Below, piece by piece: positions 2,747 to 21,413 of a DNA stretch of 64,000 nucleotides; within the stretch, counting starts at the first letter, position 1, and every line of letters begins with the position of its first letter. The translations under genes were made by a program, and so were the position numbers. The stretch is from a virus. The notes under the pieces were generated by a model that had not been told where the DNA came from, searched no databases, and saw nothing but the letters and a program-made list of their open reading frames with translations. Location of the stretch: IMG/VR virus record IMGVR_UViG_3300025127_006147, positions 1 through 64,000 of that record. One strand, 5' to 3'.

Positions 2747-3550
2747 TTAGTCAGCTGTTTCTGGAGTATATTTTATTCCCCTATCGGTAGTGAAAAAATA
2801 TTCTTTTTTAGCAGTCTCAATCCAAAAGTTAGCTTCCGTCGCATCGATTAACTCTTCCTGGTTAAACTTATAATTCCAAAATAAAGAGTCAGGACGCATA
2901 TTAGTATGTTTATAACCTACTTTAGGTATTGTGAAAACTTTTAAATCGTTATAAGTAGCTCTAAGTAAGAATTCGTAGACAAAAGTTAATCTAACAGTAC
3001 TTTTAAATCCTCCGACTTCTTGGAACTTTTCTTTATTTATTACCATTCCACTAGTTTGGAAATTAGGGTACCGTAATAAACACTGATTATCTAGATATCC
3101 CATTTTATCACTAAAATTCATAGCCCAAACTGCTTCATTTGTAAAATTAATAAATTCACCTTCCGCAGTTACATCTACAACTAATGGTAAGAAAATATCC
3201 ACATCCTTATATTCATTAGAATATTTAAACACATTTTTAAACCATATAGTTGCATATTCATCATCATATTCTAATACTGAGAACCATTTGGTTTTTACAT
3301 TATCAACACCAAAATTAATTTGTCCCATAAATGAAGTATCTCCTGTGTTTTCCACAATATCTACTTCTAAATTTTGAAAATCGAATTGGTCTAGGTAACT
3401 TTTAAGTTTAGGGTCATTACTACGTACAATTAAAAGTTTTGGTTTTTCTTCTACGGTTTGAGTTGTGATGCTTTTAATAGCATTCTTAAATAGGTCGTCT
3501 GTTTTTTCATTTGTTAAATGAATGGGTAATATAATAGTTAAATCTTTCAT
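2747..3550 (-). CDS. Glycosyltransferase family 2 (GT-A fold)
   Basis: N-terminal LTIILPI..AIKSI, acidic YDDEY motif, GGF..YEFLLR acceptor region. Confidence 0.8.
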   Translation of the reverse strand: MKDLTIILPIHLTNEKTDDLFKNAIKSITTQTVEEKPKLLIVRSNDPKLKSYLDQFDFQNLEVDIVENTGDTSFMGQINFGVDNVKTKWFSVLEYDDEYATIWFKNVFKYSNEYKDVDIFLPLVVDVTAEGEFINFTNEAVWAMNFSDKMGYLDNQCLLRYPNFQTSGMVINKEKFQEVGGFKSTVRLTFVYEFLLRATYNDLKVFTIPKVGYKHTNMRPDSLFWNYKFNQEELIDATEANFWIETAKKEYFFTTDRGIKYTPETAD

Positions 3551-3551
3551 T

Positions 3552-4646
3552 TTAATTTTCTTCGTTTACAGTAAGTTTATTAATAGCGTCTTCTAATTCT
3601 TTTTCTTTATCTTTCATTAATCCATCAATAAAAGATTTGATTTCTTTATCTTGTCTTTCAGTGGTGTAAGGTGAAACAGTTTCTTCCATTTTTTCGAATA
3701 ACTCAGACGGTACCGAATCCTCTAACCATGTTTTCATGTACGCATTTATGACATCTACCATTTGATTAAATTCGTAACTCCAAAAACCATTTTCCTCTTG
3801 TAACCATTCAGGTTTAAGATTAGGTATTTTACCAATTACTGGCACACCACTTTTCATACACTCTAGTGGGAAAGTACCAAAACCTGAAATATCGTCTACC
3901 CACACACCTACTGCAACATCTTTTAAAGTTTCAGCGAATGTTTTAGTGTCCATTCCTCTCATATCTCTAAATGTTATCCATTTAAATTGTGGGTATCTAG
4001 CATAAAAAGTTTTAACAATTTTCATAGTATCTCTAGGTTCTCTTGTATGGATAGCCACTAAAGGAGTTCCAGGTTTTTCAGTTTTAGTAAAATCGTCAGT
4101 GATAGATGGTGGAACTACTGAAACATTGACATTAGGGAATACTGAAAGTATGTATTCTTTTGAAATTTCAGAAGTAGTAATAACGTGATTATACCCATAA
4201 CTCATCCATTGTACACCAGGTTGTAACATCTCAAATATATAATCATATGACTGACATAGAACAACTTTAGTACAAACCATTTCTTTAGTTTGTTCCATAA
4301 CATGACCAAATAATTCTGGTACAATTAAAACATCTGCTGGTCCTACAGATAACCCACCTGAACTTACACAAGCGTGTGGTAAAGAAGAGTACTCTTCCCC
4401 TAACCATTCACTTATAGACATCCATTCTCCGTTTTGAGTATCGTTAATTTTATAGTCTTCATTTTCATGTAGAATAAAAGCGTTATACCCCTCATCAACT
4501 AAAGATTTAACTAATTGGTAGTTATATCTGATAGACGCTTTAGGGTTACCTTTACTATCTTGTGTTAAAATAAAAATTTTACCTTCTTTATCTCTGACTA
4601 GATTTAAAGCAAGTTCAATTTTTTGTACGTTAATGTTATTTTCCAT
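3552..4646 (-). CDS. Glycosyltransferase, GT-B fold (GT1/GT4-like)
   Basis: C-terminal GFGTFPLECMKSGVPVIG matches the GT4-like E-x-M-x-x-G-x-P-V signature. Confidence 0.75.
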   Translation of the reverse strand: MENNINVQKIELALNLVRDKEGKIFILTQDSKGNPKASIRYNYQLVKSLVDEGYNAFILHENEDYKINDTQNGEWMSISEWLGEEYSSLPHACVSSGGLSVGPADVLIVPELFGHVMEQTKEMVCTKVVLCQSYDYIFEMLQPGVQWMSYGYNHVITTSEISKEYILSVFPNVNVSVVPPSITDDFTKTEKPGTPLVAIHTREPRDTMKIVKTFYARYPQFKWITFRDMRGMDTKTFAETLKDVAVGVWVDDISGFGTFPLECMKSGVPVIGKIPNLKPEWLQEENGFWSYEFNQMVDVINAYMKTWLEDSVPSELFEKMEETVSPYTTERQDKEIKSFIDGLMKDKEKELEDAINKLTVNEEN

Positions 4647-4654
4647 TTTTTAAT

Positions 4655-4981
4655 TTAATTTACTTCTTTTATTATTTTATATTCAATTAAGGTATTAAAA
4701 GACAATTTAAACGGAAAACTCAAATTATCAAGACTTTTATAACCCATCTTTTCATCAATTTCTTCATTGGTAGATAATATAACATCTAAAAATAATCTTA
4801 ACATTTCATATTTTGCAGCATTTATAGCTAAATTATCTGTAACCTCTTCATCCTCTTTGGTTTTAGATTCTTTTTCGAGCGTTATACAGTTCATTAACTC
4901 GTCTAAGTCAACAACCATTTTAGTTCCCATAATGTCCACTTGAAAATCTTTAAGCGAACTCATTTCTCTCAATATACTCAT
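4655..4981 (-). CDS. Hypothetical protein (108 aa)
   Basis: ORF track, co-oriented in a tight operon. Confidence 0.7.
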   Translation of the reverse strand: MSILREMSSLKDFQVDIMGTKMVVDLDELMNCITLEKESKTKEDEEVTDNLAINAAKYEMLRLFLDVILSTNEEIDEKMGYKSLDNLSFPFKLSFNTLIEYKIIKEVN

Positions 4982-5546
4982 CTTCTATTAAATCTTTAAT
5001 CGAGGAGACATATAAGACATTTCCGTGATAATTAGATACCTTATCATCTTTATTATATTCCTCTTTGTTTATTTTTATATACTTAGTTTTTTTATAGTTA
5101 GTAATGTTTGAATTATTTGTAATTATTATATCTGCTTTTTCATTAACAGATTTAAAATCCTCTAAAGGAAAAAACTCTATATTATCTATTAGGATACCCA
5201 TTCTAGCTAAAAACATTAAAGTAGCGGGTTTAGATTTCTCAATTTCGTTAGAAAATAAAATTATATTAAATTTATCTCTATATTTTTTATAAAATTCATT
5301 AACCATAAATGAAGTTCCTTCTTCACACTCGTTGGAGTAACCAAATATTCTCATAGGACATTCTATGTACATATACTCAATTAAGTCCTCTTTAGAATCA
5401 AATCCTAAATATTCTTGTAGACCTTGTCCTTCATACTCATTTTCAAACTCTTTTTCTAAATTATCAGCCTTGTAAACTAATATAGTTTTACTTTCAATGT
5501 CTCTAATCAAATTATTTAATTCTATGTAAATATTTTTTTTCATCAT
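4950..5546 (-). CDS. HAD-fold 5'(3')-nucleotidase-like protein with degenerate motif I
   Basis: N-terminus IYIELNNLIRD aligns with HAD/NT5C 'IxIDxDGVxRD' but both Asp residues are replaced; KSKPATLMFL and ADIIIT regions are consistent with the fold. Confidence 0.5.
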   Translation of the reverse strand: MMKKNIYIELNNLIRDIESKTILVYKADNLEKEFENEYEGQGLQEYLGFDSKEDLIEYMYIECPMRIFGYSNECEEGTSFMVNEFYKKYRDKFNIILFSNEIEKSKPATLMFLARMGILIDNIEFFPLEDFKSVNEKADIIITNNSNITNYKKTKYIKINKEEYNKDDKVSNYHGNVLYVSSIKDLIEDEYIERNEFA

Positions 5547-5558
5547 TTAAAAAATAGG

Positions 5559-5565
5559 ATAAATA
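5559..5565 (-). promoter_or_regulatory. Putative late promoter TATTTAT
   Basis: 12 nt upstream of the gene at 4950-5546. Confidence 0.55.
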
Positions 5566-5581
5566 CTATAGTAGTAAACTA

Positions 5582-6244
5582 TTAATAACCCGTTAATAAA
5601 GTTAAAACTTCATCTATAGCTTCATGTCTGTGATTATCTTCTAAAACAGCTTTAAAAACAAATTCTGAATCTTTAATTTTAGGAATTTCATGTATAGCAG
5701 AGTAATTTTTATCTTTGAGGTCGATTTGTTGATTATCACCACAAAATATCATAGTAGAATTTTTACCCAACCTACCCAAAGCCATGTTTAACTGGGACTT
5801 AGTTAAGTTCTGAAATTCATCTACAATCACCACACAGTTTTCAAAAGTTCTACCCCTAAAGTGAGCTAATGAAACTAATTCTATACTTTCGTCTTCTTCC
5901 ATTCTAGAAAGTATTTGTGGTTTATTATATACCTTTCTCATATTACTTCTAATAGGAACAAGCCATGGTTCCATTTTTTCTTTTTCAGAACCAGGTAAAA
6001 ATCCATTATCTTCAGTAGATACTGTAGGTCTAGTTATTATAACTTTATTAACCATTCTTTTAAAGAACATATCTAAAGCACTTTGACAAGCTAATAGTGT
6101 TTTTCCGCTTCCAGCCTTACCCACAATAAAATTAAATGGGTGATTTAATATAGCTGCTTTTGCTGTTTTTTGTTCTGGAGATAAGGTTATTGAAAATCTA
6201 ACGGGCCCTTTAGGGGGGACCTTATCTATGTTTTGTTTTGCCAT
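5582..6244 (-). CDS. phoH: PhoH-family ATPase
   Basis: GKAGSGKT Walker A, ITRP, GFLPG, RGRTF, DEFQN, GD..QID and R(H)E motifs typical of PhoH. Confidence 0.93.
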   Translation of the reverse strand: MAKQNIDKVPPKGPVRFSITLSPEQKTAKAAILNHPFNFIVGKAGSGKTLLACQSALDMFFKRMVNKVIITRPTVSTEDNGFLPGSEKEKMEPWLVPIRSNMRKVYNKPQILSRMEEDESIELVSLAHFRGRTFENCVVIVDEFQNLTKSQLNMALGRLGKNSTMIFCGDNQQIDLKDKNYSAIHEIPKIKDSEFVFKAVLEDNHRHEAIDEVLTLLTGY

Positions 6245-6252
6245 CTAAATTT

Positions 6253-7308
6253 TTATTTTTTATATTTATTTAACCAATACTCTATCATTTCATCTAACAT
6301 AGTTTCAAAAGTGTATTTAGGTGTCCAACCTAATTCACTCCTTAATTTAGTAGAATCACCTTTTAAATCATGTAACTCTTCAGGTCTCATATGTTTTTCA
6401 TCAATCACTACATAATCCCTAAAATCTAAATCTAATCTATTAAAAGTATATTCACATAAATCTTTAACCGAGTGTGAAATACCTGTGGCACACACATAAT
6501 CATCTGGTTTTAAAGTGGATTGTAACATAAGCCACATAGCTTCCACATAATCTTTAGCATGACCCCAATCACGAGTAGCGTCTAGGTTACCTAAATGTAA
6601 TTTGTCTTGCAATCCTAATTTAATTCTAACTGCAGCTTTAACTACTTTATTTGTTACAAAATTTGTCCCTCTTCTAGGTGATTCGTGGTTAAAAAGAATA
6701 CCGTTCCATATTTTCATACCATAAGAATTTCTATAATTTCTTGTTATGTTGTAAGAAAATACTTTTGCACAACCATAAGGTGATACTGGATTCATAGCTG
6801 TAGTTTCCCTTTGAAATCTATCTGAATCTATATTATTACCAAACATCTCAGATGAACTAGCTTGGTATATTTTGGAGTTAGGTGACACCATCCGACAAGC
6901 TTCTAGTAAATTTAAAGTACCTAAACCTGTTGCATTTACAGTATATAGGGGTTGGTCAAAACTTACTCTAACATGTGATTGAGCTGCTAAATTATATATT
7001 TCGTCTGGTTCTACTTTTTGTAATACTCTAACTAAAGAAGCCATATCAGTTAAATCAGCATACTCTAAATTTAAATAATCGAATATATGGTCAATTCTAA
7101 CTGATTGAGTTTCGGAAACTGAATTTCTTTTTACAATACCCCATACCTCGTAATCTTTTTCTAATAATAGTTCTGCTAAATAAGAACCATCTTGTCCATT
7201 AATTCCAGTAATTAATGCTCTTTTTCTTCTATAATGTTTTTCACCCATATCTATAATCCCTAATTTAGATTCTTTAGGGTCAACTTCTACCCATCCGTCT
7301 TTATTCAT
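6253..7308 (-). CDS. gmd: GDP-mannose 4,6-dehydratase
   Basis: [67 protein letters not shown]. Confidence 0.96.
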
Positions 7309-8449
7309 GTTTATTTATTATATTAACTATTACGTCTATATTTTGGGTTGTAAGTCCTTGATGGTTAGGAATATAGAAACCCTGTGACTCAAGTAGTTCA
7401 CAGTTATTCAATCCCCCTTTATCACCTTTCCACATAGGTTTATTTGCCATATTTCCAGCAATTAATGGCCTAACTTCTATATTATTATCCACTAAATCTT
7501 TAATAATGTTATTTCTTTTCGGGTGAACTATCGGTATAGCAAAACTAGAAACGTAATCACTAGGTTTTTCATCTAAATCCAACAAATTAGTTTTTAACTT
7601 ACTAATATAATATTTAAAATTTTCTCTACGTCTTTTAGAATACTCATCTAGTTTTTCGATAGCTCTTAAACCTATAAAAGCCTGTAAATCAGTAGACCTT
7701 AAATTCATTCCAGGAACATAGAAATTATATAGTGCATCAAAATCCGTACACCCATATTGTTCTCTTAATTGTTTTTGTTTCCATTTAGGTAAATCTCGGT
7801 CCCACCCATGACTTCTCATCATTAGTAATAAATGATAAAACTCTTCATCATTGGTATTTATAAATCCACCCTCGATAGTTGATAGATGGTGACCAAAGTA
7901 CATAGAGAAAAAAGATGCGAAACCAAATGAACCTAAGTAATCTTCATTAAATTTAGAACCCATACTTTCACATACATCTTCTAATAAAATTACATCATAC
8001 TTATCACAAAGTTTGTTTATTTCTACCATATCGGGTACTAATCCTAAAGGAGAAACTAAAATTAGAGTAGATGGATTTTCTTTCTTAAATATTTTTTCTA
8101 ATGATTTTAAATCACACGACAAATCTGTTAAGTTACAATCACACATTACAACATCATAATCTAATAACATAGGGGAACTTACATCAGTTGCCCAACTTAG
8201 AGCTGGTACAACTATTTTATTATTTTTTAATTTACCTGATTCTTTTAAAGCAGCTAAAGTTAATAAAATAGAAGATGAACCAGAATTTACAAATACAGAA
8301 TATTTAGTTCCTATTTTTTTGGCCCATTTTTTTTCTAGTTCTTTGGTGAGTTCACCTTTTGTAAGTCTGGGTATTGGGTCCTGTTGTAACCAGGAAATGA
8401 GATGGTTTATATCCTCTCTATCTATTGTATCACTAACTAATTTTATCAT
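7301..8449 (-). CDS. colD: PLP-dependent GDP-4-keto-6-deoxy-D-mannose 3-dehydratase (ColD-type, DegT/DnrJ family)
   Basis: [22 protein letters not shown] (His where aminotransferases have the Schiff-base Lys), [26 protein letters not shown]; sits between gmd and an fcl-like reductase. Confidence 0.82.
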
Positions 8450-9326
8450 ATACTTTTTTTATTCCTTTACTTAAAGGTAATGTTTTAAACTCAGGGAGTA
8501 AACCTTTTAATTTATCTATTGACACATCTTTTCTGTGTTGCCCATCTGGTTTAGTAGAATCAAATACTATTTTTATATTTTTTAAATTACAGGATTCTAA
8601 GGCTATCTGAGCCATATCTTTTATTGTAAGGTTATCTTCAGTAGCTACATTTAAGTTTTCGTAGATTTGTTTATCTAAACATTCCTTTATTACCCAAGCT
8701 AAATCATCTGAATGCATAAATTGTCTTAAAGCTTTACCACTTCCGAAAAGATTTAGAGTGTCTCCCCCTTCTTTTTCTACTTTTACTATTTTTTTAACTA
8801 ATGCAGCTATAAAATGACTATTTTCCCCGAATTTATCATTTTCTCCATATAAATTACATGGTGTTAAATACTGATATTGTGTACCGTATTGTTTATTACA
8901 AGCTTCTATGTGTACCGCTAAACATCTTTTAGCGTAACCATACGAAAAATTTGTAGGTGTAGGAGGTCCAGAGTGTAACATCTCTTCAGTCATTGGGTAG
9001 GTGTCTACTTTGTCTGGATATATACAAGTACTTAATATCCCTATAAATCTTTTTACTCCAGTAAGCCGTGACCACTTAACTATATTTGTATTCATTTGGA
9101 TGTTTTCAGTAAAATAGCTTTCAGGGTTATTCATATTATCTATTATTCCACCACATTTTGCAGCTAAATGAATTACAACATCAAATTCATTTTTAACCAT
9201 TAAAGATTTTACTTCTTTTTCATTTGTCAAATCACATTCTTGTGAAGATAAGTACATGGCGTTCGGTAAATATTTTTTTAATGATTTACCAACCATACCA
9301 CTACCACCTGTAACTAATATATTCAT
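8433..9326 (-). CDS. fcl: GDP-L-fucose synthase family epimerase/reductase (probably ColC-like in this context)
   Basis: VTGGSGMVG, HLAAKCGGI, LSTCIYP, YGYAK, PCNLYG, RQFMHSDD, KPDGQHRK motifs of the Fcl/WcaG family. Confidence 0.88.
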   Translation of the reverse strand: MNILVTGGSGMVGKSLKKYLPNAMYLSSQECDLTNEKEVKSLMVKNEFDVVIHLAAKCGGIIDNMNNPESYFTENIQMNTNIVKWSRLTGVKRFIGILSTCIYPDKVDTYPMTEEMLHSGPPTPTNFSYGYAKRCLAVHIEACNKQYGTQYQYLTPCNLYGENDKFGENSHFIAALVKKIVKVEKEGGDTLNLFGSGKALRQFMHSDDLAWVIKECLDKQIYENLNVATEDNLTIKDMAQIALESCNLKNIKIVFDSTKPDGQHRKDVSIDKLKGLLPEFKTLPLSKGIKKVYDKIS

Positions 9327-9350
9327 ATTAAAATTATAATTAAATTTATT

Positions 9351-10184
9351 TTATAATAAACCCGTTTTTATGTAGTCATTAAAAATTTGATTTTCACCTA
9401 ACGTGAAATTTTTAGATAATTCTAAATTCTTTTTAATATGAGGTAACATTTTTTCATATTTTTCCACACTTAAGTCATTTAAAATTTTACTTATATCGTT
9501 TACATTATTAATAATGATAAATCCACGAGTATCAAAAAAGTCCCCTATTGATGGACATCCCCAATAAATTGGTACGGTACCAGTAATTAAACAATCTATA
9601 AGTTTTTCAGTAAACCAATAATCTCTTTTACAATTTTCTATCACTACTGAAAATCTATAATCACCTAAACCTTCTATTTTTTTATTTACATACTTATACC
9701 CATTACCGAATACATCTAATTTTTCTCTATTAGTTCCAATAATGTGATGTCTAATTTTATGTCCCTCCAACTGAACTTTATTCGATGCTATTATGGAAAC
9801 CAACTTATTTTTGGGGTGTAATTTTCTATCTTCAGGTTCTATCCAACAACCACCAAAAGGTATAAATTTAAAATTATCACCTAAATCTAATAGACTTTTT
9901 TCGTGCGTAAAAACATATTTAAAACTACTATTATTATTTTTAATAATTTCATAGGCTGTTGGAACAAAATCATATGGTTCTAATAACCAACAAACCTTAT
10001 TATTATTTTTATCATTGAGGGCTTCATTTACTGTACTATGTGTATAAAAAGTTAGTTCATTTTCTGATGGAGTACTCCAGTCCCATTCCATATGTTCACA
10101 AAAACTAACAGGAGGCATAGGATTATTACTATAACTACAGTGTTGAAATGAGGTGTCTTTTATTTTTACTTTTATTTTATCCAT
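9351..10184 (-). CDS. Glycosyltransferase family 10 (alpha-1,3/4-fucosyltransferase-like)
   Basis: YRFSVVIEN..DYWFTEKLIDCLITGTVPIYWG is the GT10 donor-binding motif. Confidence 0.8.
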   Translation of the reverse strand: MDKIKVKIKDTSFQHCSYSNNPMPPVSFCEHMEWDWSTPSENELTFYTHSTVNEALNDKNNNKVCWLLEPYDFVPTAYEIIKNNNSSFKYVFTHEKSLLDLGDNFKFIPFGGCWIEPEDRKLHPKNKLVSIIASNKVQLEGHKIRHHIIGTNREKLDVFGNGYKYVNKKIEGLGDYRFSVVIENCKRDYWFTEKLIDCLITGTVPIYWGCPSIGDFFDTRGFIIINNVNDISKILNDLSVEKYEKMLPHIKKNLELSKNFTLGENQIFNDYIKTGLL

Positions 10185-11124
10185 TTTTTATTTCTTTTTT
10201 AAACCAATTAACAAACTTAACTAATCCTTCATTAAGTGTACACACTGGAGACCACCCAATGTCCTTATAAAGTTTGTTAGATGTAGTGTAAGCATGCATT
10301 ATATCACCTTTTCTATGATAATCTGTTACAATTATTTTAGAATTAGAGTCTATTAATTTTTTTAACTGTTGAGTAACATCTAGAATTTTGGATGGTATAC
10401 CTGTACCTATATCGTAAGTTTTGTAGTTAGTATTTTCATTAATTATACAACCTAGTGTAGCATTTACCACATCGTTAACATATATGAAGTCTCTAGTAGG
10501 TTTTCCATTATCAAATATTGTGACATCTTTATTATTAATAAATAAATTACTAAAAATACTAATGATACCAGTATATGGATTATTTAAACTTTGTCCATCT
10601 CCAAAAACATTTTGATACCTTAAAATGGTATACGGTACTTTACTAGATGTTTTTATTAATTGTTCTTGTGTTAATTTTGTAATAGCGTAGACTGATTTGG
10701 GTTCTAAAAATTTATTATTTTCATCATTAATACCTTCACCATAGACCGCTCTACTAGAGGATAATATAATTTTTTTAGTACCATACTTACCACTATTAAT
10801 TAAATCTAACATTAATGAAGTTCCTACAATATTGGTAGTGGTGTACCTGTTAATTTCATCCATGGATTGTCCTGTACCAGTTTCTGAAGCTAAATGTAGT
10901 ATTACTTCAGGATTAAATTCTAGAGCCTTTTTCCAGTCACTCTCATTTCTAACATCACCAATAATATAAGTAACACCATCAATTAACTCTGGTGTATTAC
11001 CGTGAATTTGTTCTAACATATTGTCAAGAACCACAATTTTATAAGTTTGTGAGGAGTCCAAAACTAATTTATTAATTATTTTAGAACCTATAAAACCTGC
11101 TCCCCCCGTTATTAATATTTTCAC
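10177..11124 (-). CDS. NAD-dependent nucleotide-sugar epimerase/dehydratase (extended SDR)
   Basis: GGAGFIGS, SSRAVYG, YAITK (YxxxK), RYQNVFG, RDFIYVND. Confidence 0.9.
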   Translation of the reverse strand: MKILITGGAGFIGSKIINKLVLDSSQTYKIVVLDNMLEQIHGNTPELIDGVTYIIGDVRNESDWKKALEFNPEVILHLASETGTGQSMDEINRYTTTNIVGTSLMLDLINSGKYGTKKIILSSSRAVYGEGINDENNKFLEPKSVYAITKLTQEQLIKTSSKVPYTILRYQNVFGDGQSLNNPYTGIISIFSNLFINNKDVTIFDNGKPTRDFIYVNDVVNATLGCIINENTNYKTYDIGTGIPSKILDVTQQLKKLIDSNSKIIVTDYHRKGDIMHAYTTSNKLYKDIGWSPVCTLNEGLVKFVNWFKKEIKNG

Positions 11125-13285: not shown

Positions 13286-13289
13286 TTTA

Positions 13290-13913
13290 TTACTTTATTA
13301 AACATCTATTAAAAAATTCTATCATCCAACCATAGTCAGCGTGTTGGTTTTCTATATTACTATACCCTTCTTGTTGTATACATAACATGGGGTTCATAAT
13401 AAAAGTTTTTTGTCTAGGGACGATATGCCTACAGTAAAAAACATCTATAATCGGATGAAATGGTGCTTCTTTCAATATAAAATCATACATGGTATGATTT
13501 ATTGCGTAAGCGTGAGTTGTGTAAGCAAAATTAGTTTTAACTAAATTAGGTGTGTGGGTTACTAATCTCCCCACATTAGGGTCTACCGTAGCTCCTAAGT
13601 AAAATAAATCCCAATCCTGGTCCGTGAGTTGGTCTAGAGATTTATTTAAATGTGTGATGTTTTCATCTATAACTAACACATCATCTTCAAATATTAAGAC
13701 GTTTTTTAATCCTTCATCTTTAGCTTTTTTAATAATACTTAGATGACTTTCTCTACAACCTAAAGCTCCATTATCGAATTTTAATGCTGGAAAATGTAAA
13801 ACTTTATCCTTTATGTTTAATTTATCGAATTCTTTTTGTGCTTGTTCCCACCTATCAGTTCTTTCTTCTAGGTTTATACAAAACATCCCATCAAAAAATT
13901 TTTCTAGTCCCAT
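13290..13913 (-). CDS. Glycosyltransferase family 25
   Basis: CINLEERTDRW, GCRESH, LIFEDD, THAYAI. Confidence 0.87.
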   Translation of the reverse strand: MGLEKFFDGMFCINLEERTDRWEQAQKEFDKLNIKDKVLHFPALKFDNGALGCRESHLSIIKKAKDEGLKNVLIFEDDVLVIDENITHLNKSLDQLTDQDWDLFYLGATVDPNVGRLVTHTPNLVKTNFAYTTHAYAINHTMYDFILKEAPFHPIIDVFYCRHIVPRQKTFIMNPMLCIQQEGYSNIENQHADYGWMIEFFNRCLIK

Positions 13914-13932
13914 GAGTCAAATAATTTATTGA

Positions 13933-14580
13933 TTACTTTAATTTATTTTTAAACTCATCCACAGTAACCACATTCATTAGTGAATTACGTTCATTTTTAA
14001 ATAATTTCCAGTTAAGTTCCTCCATGTTTAAAATTTCTTTTTCCGACACAAAAGGTTCTTGTTCTCCTTTTTGTATAATACCTAAACCACAATCAGTGTC
14101 AATAGTATACATATTCAGGTCTTTTCTAGTCATCCGATAAAAAGCAAAAGATTTCCACACAGTACCCCACCAACCAAAACCAAAGTCTTTTTCTAATTGA
14201 CCTTCGTATCTTTCTGGCAAACAGTCATGTATTACAATAGTCCCACCCTCGTTTAAAAAACGTAATGAGTTATCGATATCTCTTTTAACCTGCCAGTCCA
14301 AATGAAGACCATCTATAAACACAATATCTAACATTTGTTTATTCTGTTCAAAAAACTCGTCGGAAGTCATAACGAATTGTATTTGATTAGAAAATATTTC
14401 CCTATTATCATCACCCCAATGTGTAGCTACTCTTAGGTTTTTATCGTATGGGTCAACACCTATTTTATTTTCAATTTCTATTTTATTAAAATTTAAATCT
14501 GGATTATCTATTCCAATCTCTAAATAGGTTTTATACCCATTATGTTTTATAAATTTATTAATTGCTTCTGTTCTAGTCAT
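13933..14580 (-). CDS. Class I SAM-dependent methyltransferase (Methyltransf_24-like)
   Basis: YLEIGI, GVDP, TSDEFF, DIVFIDGLH, GGTIVIHDC. Confidence 0.85.
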   Translation of the reverse strand: MTRTEAINKFIKHNGYKTYLEIGIDNPDLNFNKIEIENKIGVDPYDKNLRVATHWGDDNREIFSNQIQFVMTSDEFFEQNKQMLDIVFIDGLHLDWQVKRDIDNSLRFLNEGGTIVIHDCLPERYEGQLEKDFGFGWWGTVWKSFAFYRMTRKDLNMYTIDTDCGLGIIQKGEQEPFVSEKEILNMEELNWKLFKNERNSLMNVVTVDEFKNKLK

Positions 14581-14588
14581 GATTGTAT

Positions 14589-15350
14589 TTAAATTTTTAT
14601 TTTAAAGTAATTAGGTACTATTTCACATTTAGGTTCGTCAGTATCTATATTGTATGTTATTATTTTATTTGCTCTTTCATCTATAACACCGTCATTTTTA
14701 TAGTTTAATCTACAAGTCCAAGACTCATATTTTTTTCTAATATCTTTTCTTATTGTAGTATAGTGGTGCATAAGAATATCTTTCTTATCAAATAAGTGAG
14801 GGTTATGGTATGTGTTAACTATTCTAGTCGGGTCTATCTGTGAAACAAAATATTCACCACCCAAAACTAACTGTGTATTATCATAAATTTTATTAATAAA
14901 AGGTACCTTATAAGGTTCTGACAAACCAATAACTCGATATTCAGGAATTTTGTGGTAATTCTGTATCCAACACACTGAAGTGTCTATATCTTTAGTTTTA
15001 ATAAATTCTTTAGCTTTATTAAACTCTTCTTTAAAATAAAATTCATCACAATCCATTGTCATAAAGTGTGTGTAACCTAAACTTTTAACTTTTTCTAAAC
15101 CTATATTTTTTTTATTTAGTTCGTTCATTTGAGGACCGATAGGTGATGTCTTGTAAGAGATATATTCATTTATGAGTCCTTTTTTATAAAGATTAATGAC
15201 AGTATCTTCCACATCTGGATTAAAAACACCAAAATTAGAGGTGGTCTGATATACCACTATAATATAATCCACACATTCTTTTATAGAGTTAATTGATTGT
15301 TCTAATAGTTCTTCACCATCAAATACGTTATATATTGCTGCTAATTTCAT
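14589..15350 (-). CDS. Putative GT-A-fold glycosyltransferase, paralog 1
   Basis: YNVFDGEELLEQSINSI, DYIIVVYQ, NIGL, MDCDEFY (DxD), DPTR, MHH; near-identical architecture to the next gene. Confidence 0.6.
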   Translation of the reverse strand: MKLAAIYNVFDGEELLEQSINSIKECVDYIIVVYQTTSNFGVFNPDVEDTVINLYKKGLINEYISYKTSPIGPQMNELNKKNIGLEKVKSLGYTHFMTMDCDEFYFKEEFNKAKEFIKTKDIDTSVCWIQNYHKIPEYRVIGLSEPYKVPFINKIYDNTQLVLGGEYFVSQIDPTRIVNTYHNPHLFDKKDILMHHYTTIRKDIRKKYESWTCRLNYKNDGVIDERANKIITYNIDTDEPKCEIVPNYFKIKI

Positions 15351-16114
15351 AAAAATAATTTTTTAGTTTTCTTTAAATTTACAAGTTCTTCATTAGGTTT
15401 ATACATCAAACCTTGTTGTGGATATTCCCACTCATTAAAATGTTTAACTATTTTATTTATATTATTAAAATTAGGTGATGATGAAGAGTTAGTCAACTTA
15501 ATCTTTAAATCTTTTCTAATATAACTCATATGGTGCATTTCAATTTCTTCTCTGGTAAATATTTTACATTTACCGGATTCCATTCTTCTCGTAGGGTCCA
15601 CTAACGTGGGAAATGGTAAACCCATAACATATTGTTTACCACTCTTTATTTTATAAATTAAAGAAACGTAGTAGTCTTCATGGGGGTCTAACCTATAGAT
15701 TGGTTCCTTATAATAAGTTACCATTTGGCAACACGAAGAATCATAATCACCTTCTATCATTTCTTTTTTTAAAAATTTAAACTGTTCGTCTGTATAAAAT
15801 TCATCTGAATCCATGGCCATATGATGTGTACATTTTGCACCTTCAGATAAAAATAAACCTATATTTCTTTTACTTATTTCATTAAAGTGTCCTCCTCTTT
15901 GAGGTTGTGGCCTGTACTTAAAAACTTCATCTACCAGACCTTCATTTTTTAATCTATTAATTAGTGGTATTAAATTTTCGTTACATGGATTACCAAAATT
16001 CGATATCTCTTGATAAACCACAGAAATGTAATCTACGTTTTTTCTAATACTTTTTATAGAATTCTCTAGGAGCTCCTCTCCGTCAAATATATTATAACTT
16101 ACACCTAATTTCAT
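15347..16114 (-). CDS. Putative GT-A-fold glycosyltransferase, paralog 2
   Basis: YNIFDGEELLENSIKSI, DYISVVYQ, NIGL, MDSDEFY (DxD), DPTR, MHH. Confidence 0.6.
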   Translation of the reverse strand: MKLGVSYNIFDGEELLENSIKSIRKNVDYISVVYQEISNFGNPCNENLIPLINRLKNEGLVDEVFKYRPQPQRGGHFNEISKRNIGLFLSEGAKCTHHMAMDSDEFYTDEQFKFLKKEMIEGDYDSSCCQMVTYYKEPIYRLDPHEDYYVSLIYKIKSGKQYVMGLPFPTLVDPTRRMESGKCKIFTREEIEMHHMSYIRKDLKIKLTNSSSSPNFNNINKIVKHFNEWEYPQQGLMYKPNEELVNLKKTKKLFL

Positions 16115-17649
16115 ATTGTCAATTCTTTATATTTATTTTTTATTAGTAAAGATAAATTGTTTTTATCTATATTAGAAAAATTACTATGACATCCTTTAGA
16201 TTTTATTATTTTAGGTAATAAACGATACATATAATCTTCAGCTTCCCTTTTTAATTTTTCTTTATCTTTATTTCTAGTTTGACTTTCATAGTGATAAGCA
16301 ACCGCTGTCCCTATAAAGTAATTTTTATATTTTCTATTTAAACATTCTATGTTTAATTCTACATCTTCAAAACATTCGGTATATGACTCCTTAAATCCAC
16401 CAATCTGTTTAAACAAATCTTTTTTAATCATCATAAAAGCTGCGGTATTACCAAAAACTTCCTTTCTACCCTGATGGTAATTAAAGTATGTACCTATACC
16501 ATGATGACTAACCCTAATGTTATATTTGTCATCTACAAAAGCAATAACACCAGAATGTTGCACCCTATTATCACCAAAGTGTAACCTTATACCCACTGTA
16601 CCAGTTTTTTTATTAGTATTGTAAACCTCAACCATCTGAGTAATTGAGTTATTTAATAATTTAATATCATTATTACAAAACAACAGTAATTCTACATCGT
16701 CATCGACATGGTTAGATACTATGTCATTATTAATACTTGCAAAGTTATAGTAATTATATTCTATTAATTTAATATTTTTTTTATCCTTTATGTATTCCTC
16801 TATTTCATCTAACTCTTCTAGTGATGAACCAGTATCACCTATATAGATTTTTAAATTAGGATACCCATCCATATCAAATATGGAATCTATACAGTCTTTA
16901 AGTAGGTTAACATTACCTTTAGTGGGAATTACCACACCCACACCTGGTAATTTTTTAAGTTTAATTTTTTTATCTGTTAATAAGATTTGTGGGGTAAGTT
17001 CGTAAGGTAGATTTTGTGAGTTTTTTTCAACAAACTGTCTTCTATTCACTTCCCATTCTTCGTTAGTTTGGCCTATAGATTTATGGGTTATAGTTATGTT
17101 GGTTATCACACCTACTTTAGTTCCTTTTAAATGGTTATTAAAACAAAAATCTATTTCATAAAAGTGAAATCCTTTAATATTTTCGTCGAAGTCAGTACTT
17201 AATCTGTTTTTAGAAACAGCAAAAAATAAACCATCTACTAATATACTTTCTAATATTTCGTCCCCAAATTTTGGTGAGTAAGCACTATTCCAAGTTTTAC
17301 CTTCATGTGTGTGTTTAACTTGACCTAACATTAAAGATGGGTTTTGCCACCATCTTCCAGTAGATTGCATTTCAGTAGTTCCCGCAACACCTAGAATACC
17401 AAAATTAGTATTATTAAAATGGGATATAATCCTCTTACCCCAATTTTTAGTATTGAAGATGATATCATTGTGACAAAAAATTACAATATCATTTTTAGTT
17501 TCTTTTAAAGCTTTATTGTAAAATTTTGTTAGGGGTTCTCCTTTATTAATATATTCGATTATTTCTACTTCTTTTAAACCCACAGTTTTTTTAATGTGAG
17601 AAATATGAGATTCCATAGGTTTTGGAGTACAATAAACAACACTTAACAT
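16111..17649 (-). CDS. Two-domain GT2-like glycosyltransferase
   Basis: N-domain FCHNDI..GVAG..DGLF..GFHFYEIDFC; C-domain VVIPTK..DTGS..NFASINN..CNNDI..TAAFMMI..GGF..FEDVELN. Confidence 0.82.
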   Translation of the reverse strand: MLSVVYCTPKPMESHISHIKKTVGLKEVEIIEYINKGEPLTKFYNKALKETKNDIVIFCHNDIIFNTKNWGKRIISHFNNTNFGILGVAGTTEMQSTGRWWQNPSLMLGQVKHTHEGKTWNSAYSPKFGDEILESILVDGLFFAVSKNRLSTDFDENIKGFHFYEIDFCFNNHLKGTKVGVITNITITHKSIGQTNEEWEVNRRQFVEKNSQNLPYELTPQILLTDKKIKLKKLPGVGVVIPTKGNVNLLKDCIDSIFDMDGYPNLKIYIGDTGSSLEELDEIEEYIKDKKNIKLIEYNYYNFASINNDIVSNHVDDDVELLLFCNNDIKLLNNSITQMVEVYNTNKKTGTVGIRLHFGDNRVQHSGVIAFVDDKYNIRVSHHGIGTYFNYHQGRKEVFGNTAAFMMIKKDLFKQIGGFKESYTECFEDVELNIECLNRKYKNYFIGTAVAYHYESQTRNKDKEKLKREAEDYMYRLLPKIIKSKGCHSNFSNIDKNNLSLLIKNKYKELTI

Positions 17650-18617
17650 TACAAATAAGATTTTACAGTTTCAGTGATTCCTAAGTTAAAGTTTACTTCT
17701 GGTTTCCATCTTAACTTTGTGTAAATTTTATCAAAGTTTATAGAGTACCTTAAATCATGACCAGGACGGTCACCAACAAACGATATTAATCTAGAAGACG
17801 TTCCAGGCACTAAACCCTTTATGTTATCGTAGGTTGAACAAATTTTCTTTATTAATTCTAAATTAGTTAATTCAAAGTCACCACCAACATTATATCTTTC
17901 ACCACTTTTTCCCGAATGAAAAACTTTATCTATGGCTTTTACATGGTCGTTTACGTGTATCCAATCCCTTATATTACCACCATCACCATATACAGGGATT
18001 TGTGTATTTTCTTTTAAACATTTAATTACTTTAGGTATTAATTTTTCTGTGTGTTGTTTAGGACCATAGTTGTTAGAACAATGGGTAATACAACCAGGTA
18101 AGTTAAATGTTCTAAAAGCGGCTAAAACTAAAAAATCTGCAGACGCTTTAGACGCTGAATAGGGAGAACTTGGTGCAAAAGGAGTAAATTCATAAAAAGT
18201 TCTTCCGTCATCAAAGTTAAGACTTCCATAGACCTCATCAGTAGATACTTGTAAAAATTTGTTAACTTTATATTTTAAAGAAGCATTTATTAATGTTTGG
18301 GTTCCTATGACATTTGTCTCTAAAAAGATATCGGGACTATCAATTGAATTATCTACGTGTGTTTCTGCTGCTACGTTTATAACACCATCATAATTGTTTA
18401 ACTCAAACAAACTGTTTACATATCTTTTATTAGTTATATCTACTTCGTGAAATTTTATTTTATCAATATAATCCTCTAAATTTTTTTTGTTTCCAGCATA
18501 GGTTAAACAGTCCATGACATGAATGTCGTAAGTAGGATAGTTGTCTACCATATGTTTAACTAGATGTGAACCTATAAATCCAGCTCCTCCAGTTATTAAA
18601 ATAGTTCTTTTTTGCAT
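17649..18617 (-). CDS. rfbB: dTDP-glucose 4,6-dehydratase
   Basis: GGAGFIGS, DCLTYAGN, AAETHVDNSI, STDEVYG, SPYSASK, SNNYGP, RDWIHV, DRPGHDLRY. Confidence 0.92.
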   Translation of the reverse strand: MQKRTILITGGAGFIGSHLVKHMVDNYPTYDIHVMDCLTYAGNKKNLEDYIDKIKFHEVDITNKRYVNSLFELNNYDGVINVAAETHVDNSIDSPDIFLETNVIGTQTLINASLKYKVNKFLQVSTDEVYGSLNFDDGRTFYEFTPFAPSSPYSASKASADFLVLAAFRTFNLPGCITHCSNNYGPKQHTEKLIPKVIKCLKENTQIPVYGDGGNIRDWIHVNDHVKAIDKVFHSGKSGERYNVGGDFELTNLELIKKICSTYDNIKGLVPGTSSRLISFVGDRPGHDLRYSINFDKIYTKLRWKPEVNFNLGITETVKSYL

Positions 18618-18625
18618 TAGATTTT

Positions 18626-19255
18626 TTATTTTATACCAGTACTACCAAAACCTCCTTTTTCTCTGTTAGAGGCATTTAGTGTACCCACTTTATTTAATTT
18701 TCCCCACACCTTATCTAATACTGGTGATATAACACCTTGAGCTACTCTGTCACCATTAGTAATAACAAAATCTTTTTCACCTAAATTAATTAAAATTATT
18801 TTAACTTCTCCTCTATAGTTACTATCTACAGTACCTGGTGTATTTAAAACGGTTATCCCGTTTTTTAATGCTAAACCACTCCGTGGTCTTACTTGTAATT
18901 CATAACCTCTAGGTACCTCAAAGTAAAGGCCTGTAGGAATCAATTTTCTAGACCCAGGTTTTATAGTTATGCTTTCTTCTTGATTTAAGTTTGCTCTAAA
19001 ATCAAAACCACTATCTCCTTCATGAAAGTAATCTGGGTCCGTATTATTACTTTTATTTAAAAATTTTATTTCTATTTTAGGTTTAGTTATCTTTGTACTA
19101 TTGGTGGGTAGTGTTAAAGTCTCACCAATGTCACTAAATTTTTCTAAAATCTTTTCGGTCTCTGGTAGGGTGTCAGATTGTGGAATTAAATTATTAATTT
19201 CACTAATCGTTTCTTTTAATTTTTTAATATCAGCTATTATTTTTTCTTTTCCCAT
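18626..19255 (-). CDS. dut: Trimeric dUTPase with N-terminal extension
   Basis: DSGFD, PRSGLA, GTVDSNYRGEV, DRVAQ, RxxGGFGSTG motifs. Confidence 0.95.
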   Translation of the reverse strand: MGKEKIIADIKKLKETISEINNLIPQSDTLPETEKILEKFSDIGETLTLPTNSTKITKPKIEIKFLNKSNNTDPDYFHEGDSGFDFRANLNQEESITIKPGSRKLIPTGLYFEVPRGYELQVRPRSGLALKNGITVLNTPGTVDSNYRGEVKIILINLGEKDFVITNGDRVAQGVISPVLDKVWGKLNKVGTLNASNREKGGFGSTGIK

Positions 19256-19944
19256 TATGTAATATGTTTTACTAATTTTATAGTTGCCGTAACATCATTT
19301 TCACAATACTCCCTTATTTTATCCATATCTCTTTTTTCACTATAATAAAATTGATGCAGGAGGTCACCCTTTAGGTCTCCAGATTTAGGAGATTTTATAC
19401 CTAAAGAAGCACAAATTAAGTCTAGTGACGATAACCCAATATACGAATTAAAACCCCATACCTCTTTGGTGTCAACAACTCTGGTCTCCCAAGGTTTATC
19501 ATTATAGGTGGGTAAAATTTTAGGTAGAGTTATACCATGTACTAACATTTTTTTACCAATATACGGTAAATCAAAGTTTTTGATATTGTGTCCACAAATT
19601 CTAAACCCTAATTTATCAACCCTATTAAATAACTCACAAAGATTACCCAATATTTCTTTTTCCTCACCAACAAAACTATCTAGTTTAATTTCTCCATTAG
19701 GCACTATAAACCCTACAGAGGCACAAACTATTTTACCAAACTCAGGGAGTAAGGCTGCTTTTTTAATAAACATTTCATTACTATATAGGTCTTCATTGGG
19801 GTACCTCCTTTTACAGTAATCGTATCCAGTTTCATCCCACATTTTACTTAAATGTGGAAACTCTACATGTAAAGAATCCAAATCTTCCTCAATACCTACC
19901 GTTTCTATGTCTAGAAATAAAAGTTTATTTATATCTTTAATCAT
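19255..19944 (-). CDS. Stand-alone 3'-5' exonuclease related to the PolB proofreading domain (DnaQ-like)
   Basis: LFLDIETV (ExoI), GHNIKNFDLPY (ExoII), YCENDV (ExoIII). Confidence 0.87.
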   Translation of the reverse strand: MIKDINKLLFLDIETVGIEEDLDSLHVEFPHLSKMWDETGYDYCKRRYPNEDLYSNEMFIKKAALLPEFGKIVCASVGFIVPNGEIKLDSFVGEEKEILGNLCELFNRVDKLGFRICGHNIKNFDLPYIGKKMLVHGITLPKILPTYNDKPWETRVVDTKEVWGFNSYIGLSSLDLICASLGIKSPKSGDLKGDLLHQFYYSEKRDMDKIREYCENDVTATIKLVKHIT

Positions 19945-20174
19945 TGTTGATAATACTTAGGAGTTAACGTTGGGTGTAAAATATCTTCGTAAGGTGCTTT
20001 AATAAGAGACACAATTTCAGAATCTCTAGTGTCTTCTGACAAATATCTACTTACTCTTGTAGTAGCTTCATACACTGACTCAGCTTCTACAATATATTTA
20101 AATTTTTTAACTTTAGGGTTACCATTACCATCCAAGGCCCCTGTTTCAAATGCTACGATTGCTTGATAATACAT
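19941..20174 (-). CDS. Small hypothetical protein (resembles Bacteroidota DUF4494 N-terminal domain)
   Basis: KKFKYIVEAESVYEATTRV pattern; resemblance from memory only. Confidence 0.55.
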   Translation of the reverse strand: MYYQAIVAFETGALDGNGNPKVKKFKYIVEAESVYEATTRVSRYLSEDTRDSEIVSLIKAPYEDILHPTLTPKYYQQ

Positions 20175-20189
20175 GTTTTTCTTTTTTTT

Positions 20190-21413
20190 TTAATGTGATT
20201 TTATTATTTGTTTATATAATTCAGCTCTTTCCTCAGTAACTCTATCTATATGATATTTTTGAACCGATTCATAAAGCCTTTCACCTAAATCTTCTATCAA
20301 AGAAGGGTTGGTGATTAGTCTTTTTATGTGTTGTGCCCATTGTTTGTGATTTCTTGAAGCATCTACCAATAATGAATTTCCTTTATTGTTAAATGTTCCA
20401 CCCCTTTCGTAAGCGTTCACACAATCTATTTGGTACGGACCAAAATTTTGAGCTATTAACGCTTTTTTATGAAACCCAGCCTCAATTACCTTGAGTTGTG
20501 ATTTAACTCTATTAAATGTGTGGTGTTTAAGAGGAGCTACACTAATATCGAATTTGTTGTAGTTACTAGCGTAGGTAGTGATGGGTTTGGTCCAAACTCT
20601 TCTGTACGGTGTATCTGAATCCCCAAACTCCTCACCAAATTTAAACTGCATTAGTTGGAACATCTGGTCTTTGTCTACAATTTTGTAATTACCAGTAAAT
20701 ATTTTTTCGTACTCATACCACACCGATTCTTTAGGTTTAATTTTTCTAGTCATTTCTTCACCAGTCTGTGGATTTATTTGAGTTATACTACCTCTGGTGT
20801 CAAATCCACAAAGTACAAATTGCATTTTATCCTTTAAAGAGGTTAACTTATCTACAGTACCTCTTAAAATTTCTAAATCCGCTAAGTGTGATGAACCACC
20901 TAACCAACCCACCCTTATTCGGTCACTTTTTTCAGGGTTGTGATGGAATTGTTTTTCGTTAGGGTCTACACAATTAGGTAGTACATAAACATTTTTACAT
21001 ATTTTTTTAATTTCATCTGCAAATAAAGGTGTGGTGGTCGTCACATAATCTGCTAAGTTTAAATTAGCTGTAATAAGTTCATCCATCTTTTTATTTCTTA
21101 TTATCATATAAGCTGGATGTTCTTTGTTCGGCAACCAGTAATCATCAATATCCATAATACTAGGGATTCCTAACTTTTTAATTTTAGGCATTATTTGTCT
21201 AGAAAAGTTATAATCAGGATGTAAAGTTCTATGATAATGAATTAAATCATATTGTTTAAGGTAATTGTCATCGTTTAGTTTTGGGGAATAATCAATGTCA
21301 ACCCAAAAATCATCTCCAAATTTTTCTTGTAATTTTAAGTGTTGGTCTATCGACCTAAACTTAGATACACCAGTTCGGTCACTAGGTAAAACTAATATTT
21401 TGTACTTTGCCAT
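20190..21413 (-). CDS. Glycosyltransferase, GT-B fold (GT4-like)
   Basis: DIDDYW, VTTTT, RVGWLGGSSH, DISVAPL..FNRVKSQLKVIEAG. Confidence 0.82.
   Translation of the reverse strand: MAKYKILVLPSDRTGVSKFRSIDQHLKLQEKFGDDFWVDIDYSPKLNDDNYLKQYDLIHYHRTLHPDYNFSRQIMPKIKKLGIPSIMDIDDYWLPNKEHPAYMIIRNKKMDELITANLNLADYVTTTTPLFADEIKKICKNVYVLPNCVDPNEKQFHHNPEKSDRIRVGWLGGSSHLADLEILRGTVDKLTSLKDKMQFVLCGFDTRGSITQINPQTGEEMTRKIKPKESVWYEYEKIFTGNYKIVDKDQMFQLMQFKFGEEFGDSDTPYRRVWTKPITTYASNYNKFDISVAPLKHHTFNRVKSQLKVIEAGFHKKALIAQNFGPYQIDCVNAYERGGTFNNKGNSLLVDASRNHKQWAQHIKRLITNPSLIEDLGERLYESVQKYHIDRVTEERAELYKQIIKSH

Follow-up and report, generated by a model that had tools for sequence, protein, structure and literature searches.

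A glycan-synthesis island typical of its lineage in an uncultured marine jumbo myophage, and its candidate acceptors

The stretch of DNA analysed here (the window, 64,000 nucleotides of the IMG/VR record IMGVR_UViG_3300025127_006147) is the first 64 kb of a linear viral contig of 194,481 bp, referred to as G000, which has a G+C content of 32% and an estimated completeness of 61%, the full genome of the phage being estimated at about 320 kb. The genes of the window include those for a contractile tail sheath, baseplate wedge proteins, PolB, DnaB, a UvsX-like protein and SSB; no tRNA genes were found in it. All the genes from position 24195 down to position 1628 lie on the minus strand, with ends that mostly overlap or nearly touch, and the block at positions 2747 to 21413 harbors ten glycosyltransferase (GT) genes with 11 GT domains, disclosed by sequence and profile searches of Pfam, NCBIfam and PDB and by two AlphaFold models. 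The source is an uncultured marine jumbo myophage, and the block is a genuine, lineage-typical glycan-synthesis island. Its GT genes (those called core are conserved in the relatives described below) are the following:

2747..3550, minus strand: core GT2-type GT (PF00535, 23.7 bits, cut-off 23.3)
3552..4646, minus strand: core GT-B (GT4-like) GT (profile A3 matches PDB 8xsg, E 5.8e-14)
9351..10184, minus strand: GT10-type (fucosyltransferase family) GT (PF00852, 30.9 bits, cut-off 23.9)
11121..12533, minus strand: GT2 domain fused to a TylF/MycF-type sugar O-methyltransferase (PF00535, 1.3e-11)
12518..13285, minus strand: GT11-type (alpha-1,2-fucosyltransferase family) GT (PF01531, 1.9e-29)
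13290..13913, minus strand: GT25-type GT (PF01755, 1.2e-10)
14589..15350, minus strand: DxD GT-A paralogue, 39% identical to 15347-16114
15347..16114, minus strand: GT-A fold "DxD" GT of a family without a Pfam model (alignment A1; model and Foldseek)
16111..17649, minus strand: core two-domain GT, Glyco_tranf_2_5 and GT2 (PF13712, 1e-30; PF00535, 7.6e-18)
20190..21413, minus strand: core GT4-like retaining GT-B, first gene after a terminator (model pLDDT 89)

Two relatives were available for comparison, G003 (191 kb) and G001 (298 kb, 93% complete), in which the GT2-type protein 2747-3550 is 85% and 57% identical, respectively. As for GT-B 3552, its nearest solved relative is AmGGT (8xsg), an Agt-family alpha-1,6-glucosyltransferase, the next profile match being a BshA-type GT4 enzyme at 5e-3. 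In Actinobacillus, Agt homologues act on glycopeptides, where they extend protein-linked glucose, whereas AmGGT itself uses free oligosaccharides and not glycopeptides (PMC12159676). The fusion protein matches TarS and TarP over residues 7-110, and over residues 272-395 it shows TylF/MycF homology (PDB 8ia9 at 3.5e-21 and 3ssm at 1.5e-20). Single-sequence PDB searches of 15347, 20190 and 16111 gave no match, and profiles A1 and A2 retrieved nothing useful from the PDB sequences. The model of GT-A 15347 (pLDDT 72) is matched by Foldseek to CgT, TarS, TarP and SpsA; its Atlas cluster counts 1450 members, 89% of them viral, 1162 metagenomic clusters were matched (Tara records among them), and among deposited phages homologues were found only in the Lak megaphages. 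The best folds of the GT-B 20190 model are GlgM, MshA, PglA and BshA, its Atlas clusters are virus-only, and its homologues occur in a 735-kb uncultured phage, in Campylobacter phages and in phapecoctaviruses of E. coli. At least three core GT families are virus-dominated, and they reach as far as Lak phages and phapecoctaviruses. In the cultured phapecoctavirus Escherichia phage anhysbys (NC_052656) the GT-B homologue stands in a row of four GT genes (10294-13438), and another part of the same genome has RmlC- and RmlD-like genes next to PhoH (86462-87864); nothing relevant was found in the literature on GT function in phapecoctaviruses.

Embedded among the GT genes are those for sugar-nucleotide enzymes and for a second methyltransferase:

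6253..7308, minus strand: GDP-mannose 4,6-dehydratase, Gmd (PF16363, 2.9e-121; TIGR01472, 397 bits, cut-off 415)
7301..8449, minus strand: ColD-type GDP-4-keto-6-deoxymannose 3-dehydratase (best PDB match ColD/WbdK 2gms, 6e-62)
8433..9326, minus strand: Fcl/ColC-like GDP-sugar epimerase-reductase (NF047922, 2e-58, 198 bits against a cut-off of 500)
10177..11124, minus strand: extended short-chain dehydrogenase/reductase (SDR), an NDP-sugar epimerase or reductase (PF01370, 1.1e-41; reaches no equivalog cut-off)
13933..14580, minus strand: free-standing methyltransferase, Methyltransf_24 (PF13578, 3.6e-10)
17649..18617, minus strand: dTDP-glucose 4,6-dehydratase, RfbB (TIGR01181, 396 bits, above the cut-off of 365)

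The ColD step of the GDP-colitose pathway (Gmd-ColD-ColC) is represented by 7301-8449. The match to ColD (6e-62) exceeds by far those to E1 (2e-35) and to perosamine synthase (3e-24), and a "GHH" aligns to the "SHH" of ColD, so that the His-His pair is retained, including the His that replaces the pyridoxal-phosphate lysine in this dehydratase of aspartate-aminotransferase fold. The free-standing methyltransferase weakly matches PDB 6g7d, a methyltransferase-domain protein. About ten co-oriented GT genes, the enzymes Gmd, ColD, Fcl/ColC, RfbB and another SDR, and two methyltransferase domains had been proposed when the block was read from its letters alone (referred to as the sequence-only reading). 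The ten GT genes with their 11 domains on the minus strand bear this out, the named enzymes were matched by Pfam, NCBIfam and PDB searches (Gmd just under, and the Fcl/ColC-like reductase far below, the NCBIfam cut-off), and the methyltransferase domains fall at 11121-12533 (in the fusion) and 13933-14580.

On the basis of these families, host GDP-mannose would be converted by Gmd, ColD and the Fcl/ColC-like reductase, in this order, into GDP-colitose or a related 3,6-dideoxy or 6-deoxy sugar, and host dTDP-glucose would be converted by RfbB, probably together with the extra SDR, into a dTDP-6-deoxyhexose. Neither Bac_transf nor NTP_transferase families were found in the contig; since no nucleotidyltransferase is encoded, GDP-mannose and dTDP-glucose must be supplied by the host, and the "autonomous" system of the sequence-only reading was an overstatement. 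Another part of that interpretation, a phage-borne soluble pathway with its own rare-sugar steps that leads to a methylated, deoxyhexose-rich oligosaccharide, is supported by the enzyme families.

The bacterial look of several enzyme families, and nothing more, might suggest that a bacterial rfb locus had been mis-joined to phage DNA, an artefact that the sequence-only reading had named as one of the outcomes that would refute its proposal. The probability of such an artefact is negligible. The G+C content is even, at 28-31% over the block and its flanks, and the block with its flanks is letter-identical in three other assemblies (from ENA, Logan and JGI sources), i.e., in four independent assemblies in all. 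Metagenome contigs of 18.6 kb bridge the block, and parts of the window were found in marine, estuarine and sponge metagenomes from 14 studies, no RNA run being listed among the sequencing runs with a match. Moreover, 170 of the 195 open reading frames of G000 are matched in G003 and 138 of the 195 in G001, with synteny across most of the contig, and both relatives carry a glycan block at the same genomic place. The independent assemblies, the syntenic relatives and the bridging contigs together refute the misassembly. The ENA contig ERZ27249001 k141_649654 (270,550 bp) is a longer assembly of the same phage, with the block at its 79.6-100.4 kb and about 76 kb extending past the start of the G000 contig.

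The sheath of the phage is at most 30% identical to those of the phages already deposited, over part of its length, the best matches being Microcystis phage Mel-JY01, a 484-kb uncultured phage and T4-like cyanophages (28-30% identical), so that the sheath comparison places it outside the T4-like cyanophage and pelagimyophage groups. A megablast search with the block as query gave no match among 50,697 phage records. Among the bacterial genomes searched, the best matches of Gmd are those of Saprospiraceae (69-72% identity), too distant for a host or donor to be named from them.

The comparison of the island among related phages points to a conserved core and to a middle that changes. With the two-domain GT 16111 as query, 33 IMG/VR loci were retrieved. 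This GT, the dUTPase, the exonuclease and GT-B 20190 recur in most of them (GT-B 20190 in 27 of the 33), GT-A 15347 is kept in the ten closest loci and has no match in G001, and the module formed by the sigma-like gene, the GT2-type gene and GT-B 3552 recurs in G001, G003 and three further loci. The GTs 2747, 3552, 16111 and 20190 are conserved in both G003 and G001, whereas positions 7301-15350 are replaced. We therefore distinguish, from the sequence comparison, a core of four GTs (with 15347 as a fifth in closer relatives) from a swappable middle at 7301-15350; the sequence-only reading had advised that relatives be used to tell the two apart, and the separation is clear.

The flanks of the variable segment are 84-91% identical between G000 and G003. 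Within it, G003 lacks counterparts of ColD, of the GT2-methyltransferase fusion, of GT11 and of the free methyltransferase, and the Fcl-like, GT10 and SDR proteins share only 25-34% identity with their G003 matches. The island of G003 contains instead three sulfotransferases, three methyltransferases (one of them TylF/CmcI-like), a DUF268 protein and a GT25; that of G001 contains sulfotransferases, a second Gmd, a NodZ/FUT8-like GT, a GT7C-like GT, a GT2 and an asparagine-synthase-like amidotransferase. The sulfotransferases and the amidotransferase imply that sulfated and amidated glycans are made in these sister phages. The sulfotransferases belong to PF00685 and PF03567; the variable islands that contain them extend over L054:12441-L055:1495 in G003 and L049:17666-L050:12432 in G001.

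The exchange can also be seen among nearly identical genomes, where one unit is present or absent in natural populations:

13933..15350, minus strand: two-gene cassette (Methyltransf_24 methyltransferase and DxD GT-A paralogue)

In three seawater metagenomes from different studies, contigs about 99% identical to the window join position 13929 to position 15458 through 94 other letters and thus lack the cassette (13930-15457); only the parts of the window with contig cover were used as evidence in this comparison. Among near-identical genomes, the island is thus altered one cassette at a time. With the replacement of 7301-15350 and this indel, it shows the hypervariability of the islands of GT and sugar-nucleotide genes of large myophages, as well as their assembly, at a single site of the phage genome, of several soluble GT families and of NDP-sugar dehydratases and epimerases.

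A candidate site for the attachment of the glycan is a sequence motif, [ST][GA]xT, often placed after a hydrophobic residue. There are 158 occurrences in G000, where 64.6 would be expected from the composition of the individual proteins, and the observed/expected ratio is 2.54 in G001 and 2.57 in G003. With permuted control motifs the ratios are 0.76-1.4, the structural region of T4 gives 0.99, and the long fibres of T4 have 11 sites against 8.9 expected. Only eight or nine proteins carry the excess, which in them is 3- to 10-fold. These include a 3043-aa protein at 88163 and four other genes of the tail module at 82-110 kb (contig positions 82887-110098), together with the following products of the window:

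24221..29150, plus strand: two large proteins of 939 and 694 aa, candidate acceptors, just past the upstream genes of the block and on the opposite strand
38103..41582, plus strand: tail sheath with a long N-terminal extension, candidate acceptor (phrog_23 covers residues 872-1157 only)

The two large proteins have 20 sites against 2.1 expected (24221-27040) and 12 against 3.0 expected, and 12 of the 14 sites of the sheath precede its conserved domain, in the N-terminal extension. The block enzymes (3 sites against 3.8 expected), the replication enzymes (1 against 4.0) and the other giant proteins are not enriched. Between G000 and G001 the density of the motif is kept (107 and 96 sites), whereas only 32 of 105 aligned sites coincide; interchangeable surface sites would fit this better than fixed structural positions. 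No striking mucin-like Ser/Thr tracts were found as acceptor sites.

The most likely acceptors, a choice made tentatively, are the surface-exposed tail, sheath and fibre proteins of the phage itself. The circumstantial evidence that points to them is the lineage-wide, virus-dominated core of GTs, the motif excess in tail and sheath proteins, and the Agt-family relationship of GT 3552. A fuller version is possible, although we hold it with more reserve, i.e., that the lineage glycosylates its own virion proteins at hydrophobic-[ST]-[GA]-x-T sites by means of virus-specific core GTs, with swappable outer residues of colitose or fucose type, O-methylated and, in relatives, sulfated. According to this scheme, in which all the steps are assigned by family membership, the conserved GTs 2747, 3552, 16111 and 20190 (and 15347 in closer relatives) would lay down the glycan core, and the variable GT10, GT11, GT25, GT2-methyltransferase and DxD paralogue, together with the two O-methyltransferase domains, would add strain-specific outer residues. 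Every step would be cytoplasmic, and the outcome would be a strain-specific glycan coat on the virion.

Several points weigh against virion proteins as acceptors. The glycoproteins are predicted from genes alone, none having been observed; beta-rich fibre domains might favour the motif for structural reasons, and T4 is the sole phage used as a negative control for it. No initiating protein GT was recognised: the GT41/NGT initiator (PF13844) is absent from G000, G001 and G003, so that of an NGT/Agt-type N-glycosylation system only the Agt-family relative, GT 3552, is present. The core GTs sit among genes of nucleotide metabolism, similar clusters are read in published work as devoted to the modification of host lipopolysaccharide (LPS) (PMC7029224, PMC12801897), and a promoter-like motif common to the structural genes does not directly precede the GT genes.

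This motif, TATTTAT[AT], stands 11-55 nt ahead of 45 genes, which include structural as well as replication genes, and cannot be used to time the expression of the block, because it precedes genes of both kinds. Examples in the window are at 24217(-), 22880(-), 27046(+), 38056(+) and 52748(+), those at 24217 and 22880 being on the strand of the block. TATTTAT[AT] is the reverse complement of the T4 late-promoter word TATAAATA. The GT genes follow instead a different signal:

21441..21499, minus strand: terminator-like hairpin (21499-21474) followed by a sigma-70-like match (21469-21441), ahead of GT-B 20190; consensus matches only

The hairpin is strong (an 11-bp stem with a T-run) and parts the small upstream genes from the GT-B gene; the sigma-70-like match that follows it reads TTGACT-17-TATCTT.

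The sigma-70-like match in the place of the phage motif counts in favour of a different reading, in which the island serves to remodel the envelope of the host. In this case, the soluble GTs would act at the cytoplasmic face on lipid-linked precursors of host LPS, lipooligosaccharide (LOS), capsule or protein glycans; host flippases would export the products, and the altered surface would block superinfection or keep the progeny off debris. This explanation is unlikely on the whole, although it deserves serious attention. Bacterial enzymes of families GT10, GT11 and GT25 are soluble or peripheral and use lipid-linked intermediates exported by host machinery, and GT10, GT11, GT25 and TarS-like GT2 families, the very types present in the block, act on LPS, LOS or teichoic acid, often without membrane helices. 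Such a role is favoured for similar clusters in the pelagimyophage and cyanophage papers (PMC7029224, PMC12801897). However, four GTs are kept over relatives whose proteins share about 40-90% identity, and viruses account for nearly all members of three core families; the lineage-wide conservation counts against an envelope target because accessory genes matched to the host should differ from one host to another. In addition, Gmd is at most 72% identical to that of any bacterial genome searched.

The equipment of envelope-glycan loci is missing as well. A Kyte-Doolittle scan disclosed no hydrophobic segments in the genes of the block and no protein with more than five of them in the 194-kb contig, whose only small multi-transmembrane proteins are DUF456 and DUF998. 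The same 194 kb contain no gene recognisable as a priming transferase, a flippase or a ligase, and none that is GtrA-like. The island is therefore different from a Wzx/Wzy or ABC-type O-antigen (rfb) locus, with its priming transferase, flippase, polymerase and polytopic proteins, and from a gtrABC serotype-conversion cassette, with its GtrA flippase, GtrB and membrane Gtr, no transmembrane segment being present in the block; hydrophobicity scan and family searches thus agree with the sequence-only reading, in which no flippase, Wzy, ligase, priming or membrane-anchored GT had been recognised. This absence is a weak argument against an envelope target, since the bacterial GT10, GT11 and GT25 enzymes are themselves soluble and the host provides the export.

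A third kind of acceptor is brought to mind by the genes that are interleaved with the core GTs and that make the block impure:

4655..5546, minus strand: two conserved small genes of 108 aa and 198 aa, the latter HAD-like by eye (no Pfam or PHROG match)
5582..6244, minus strand: PhoH-like ATPase (PF02562, 6.6e-50), not a glycan gene, which marks the left edge of the sugar island
18626..20174, minus strand: dUTPase (18626-19255), PolB-exo-like exonuclease (19255-19944) and a small DUF4494-like gene, conserved neighbours and not glycan genes

The 198-aa protein (4950-5546) has an N-terminal I-x-I-N-G-V-L-R-D, reminiscent of a degenerate motif I of HAD/5'-nucleotidase proteins, without a family match. 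With dUTPase, exonuclease, PhoH and the HAD-like gene so close to the core GTs, the GTs might build an oligosaccharide on a modified base of the phage DNA, which would thereby evade restriction. Strain-variable glycans are typical of T-even DNA, and published phage GT clusters add up to three sugars to 5-hydroxymethylcytosine (5hmC). Nevertheless, such a hypermodification is quite improbable here. Documented glycosylation of DNA bases starts from a thymidylate-synthase homologue (giving 5hmC, 5-hydroxycytosine (5hoC) or 5-hydroxymethyluracil (5hmU)) or from a C5-methylase with TET/JBP (PMC13326640; bioRxiv 10.1101/2023.12.21.572611), and neither thymidylate synthase (PF00303) nor C5-methylase (PF00145) was found in G000, in G003 or in G001 (93% complete). 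ThyX (PF02511) is absent from G000, and Tet_JBP (PF12851) was not found either, the latter being a weak test, as its control gave no match anywhere. A search for a hydroxymethylase or thymidylate-synthase homologue, one of the checks advised by the sequence-only reading, thus returned none in the 194-kb contig, in G003 or in G001. Furthermore, the best listed folds of the GT-B 20190 model, the one GT tested in this way, are GT4 enzymes and not the alpha- and beta-glucosyltransferases of T4, and ten GTs, methylation and the sulfation of the relatives exceed the published mono- to trisaccharide DNA glycans.

A small door is kept open by a serine hydroxymethyltransferase (SHMT) gene at 161833-162975 of the contig, which is present without a thymidylate synthase. 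It belongs to a region (159722-165542) with a DUF456 membrane protein, the UV-endonuclease UvdE and a sixth SDR epimerase. Likewise, in the more distant G002 the two-domain GT lies about 4 kb from a gene homologous to thymidylate synthase, so that a role in DNA modification is worth considering in its lineage. G002 (IMGVR_UViG_3300000931_000001) is a 266-kb genome, complete by its direct terminal repeats, that shares only the two-domain GT with G000 and has the thymidylate-synthase homologue at 120243-121040.

Finally, the entirely cytoplasmic pathway, for which no acceptor has been identified, and the use of free oligosaccharides by AmGGT, the nearest solved relative of GT 3552, would be compatible with a soluble or lipid glycoconjugate (a compatible solute, a signalling molecule or a decoy glycan) or with cytoplasmic proteins of the host. 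Acceptors of this sort are without precedent in phages, and the diversification at the strain level suggests a product exposed to recognition; we regard them as the least probable of the biological targets considered.

Clusters of GT and sugar-nucleotide genes in large marine phages were reportedly described for the first time in P-SSM2. Cyanophage S-SCSM2R has 13 GTs (families 2, 10, 11 and 25 among them) and NDP-sugar epimerases, with homologues in S-SCSM1 and P-SSM2 (PMC12801897, PMC9602691), and pelagimyophages harbor a GT-rich hypervariable host-recognition cluster (PMC7029224). As in the phage studied here, these are large marine myophages in which many soluble GTs of families GT2, GT10, GT11 and GT25 lie beside NDP-sugar dehydratases and epimerases in a hypervariable region of putative function. 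In contrast to them, G000 is not a close T4-like virus (its sheath being 28-30% identical to those of cyanophages), and its island is anchored by lineage-conserved GTs and contains a ColD-type dehydratase and a TylF-type fusion, with sulfotransferases in relatives.

A resemblance, by published description only, is offered by the moraphages, aquatic jumbo phages of 200-307 kb with four putative core GT orthogroups, a link to Lak phages and predicted Bacteroidota hosts (PMC12619734, Perez-Hernandez et al. 2025). The phage of G000 has an estimated genome of about 320 kb, four to five conserved GTs, a homologue of its GT-A in Lak phages and a Saprospiraceae-like Gmd; a variable sugar island, unlike in G000, is not described in PMC12619734. 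The same comparison with T-even and metavirome DNA glycosylation shows phage GT clusters that give strain-variable glycans (PMC13326640; bioRxiv 10.1101/2023.12.21.572611), in systems that need a thymidylate-synthase homologue, or a methylase with TET, whereas G000 has neither a thymidylate-synthase homologue nor a C5-methylase.

For the decoration of virion proteins, the precedent is that of mycobacteriophages. According to papers that cite Freeman et al. (2023), capsid and tail-tube subunits of these phages are modified by their own soluble GTs, and no other bacteriophage precedent for virion glycosylation is known. The likeness lies in phage-encoded soluble GTs (those of G000 being known from genes alone), and the difference in that those mycobacteriophages, small siphoviruses that infect Actinobacteria, have 2-4 GTs and acceptor sites at the C-terminus. 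Chloroviruses and mimiviruses harbor Gmd-type enzymes and soluble multi-domain GT/methyltransferase proteins, and in their cytoplasmic pathways a conserved core and strain-specific methylated deoxyhexoses are assembled on virion proteins. The logic, and the logic only, is the same as that proposed for G000, these being viruses of eukaryotes.

The kind of island described here has already been published (cyanophages, pelagimyophages and moraphages). This case adds the split between core and cassettes, the natural cassette indel, the ColD-type pathway, the O-methyltransferase fusions and the sulfotransferases of the relatives, as well as the absence of the known DNA routes from a near-complete relative and the motif excess with its negative control. 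In the cited reports, no acceptor has been demonstrated for the GT islands of large marine phages (PMC7029224, PMC12801897). The locus sharpens this question by setting a virus-dominated core against cassettes, by removing the known DNA routes for the lineage and by providing a candidate sequon and candidate acceptors. If virion proteins were indeed glycosylated, abundant phages of the ocean would bear strain-specific glycan coats, i.e., virion "serotypes", with a bearing on adsorption, grazing, particle stickiness and antigenic diversity, and a bacteriophage counterpart of chlorovirus glycobiology would exist. The cultured phapecoctaviruses of E. coli, which have a homologue of the core GT-B, represent a possible laboratory model for the core of the island.

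At the downstream end of the block a further gene is located:

2042..2746, minus strand: sigma-like gene (Sigma70_r2, 21 bits, below the cut-off of 24)

The sequence-only reading had placed the block next to a late sigma gene and to tail genes, and neither neighbourhood holds as described. The sigma match is below threshold and without a PHROG counterpart (a PHROG search of ten unknown genes of the block and flanks, this one included, gave no match), and the nearest recognisable tail gene, that of the sheath at 38103, is 17 kb away, beyond polymerase and helicase genes. The sigma-like protein is 91% identical in G003 and 68% identical in G001, and its gene is conserved in the relatives together with the next four genes.

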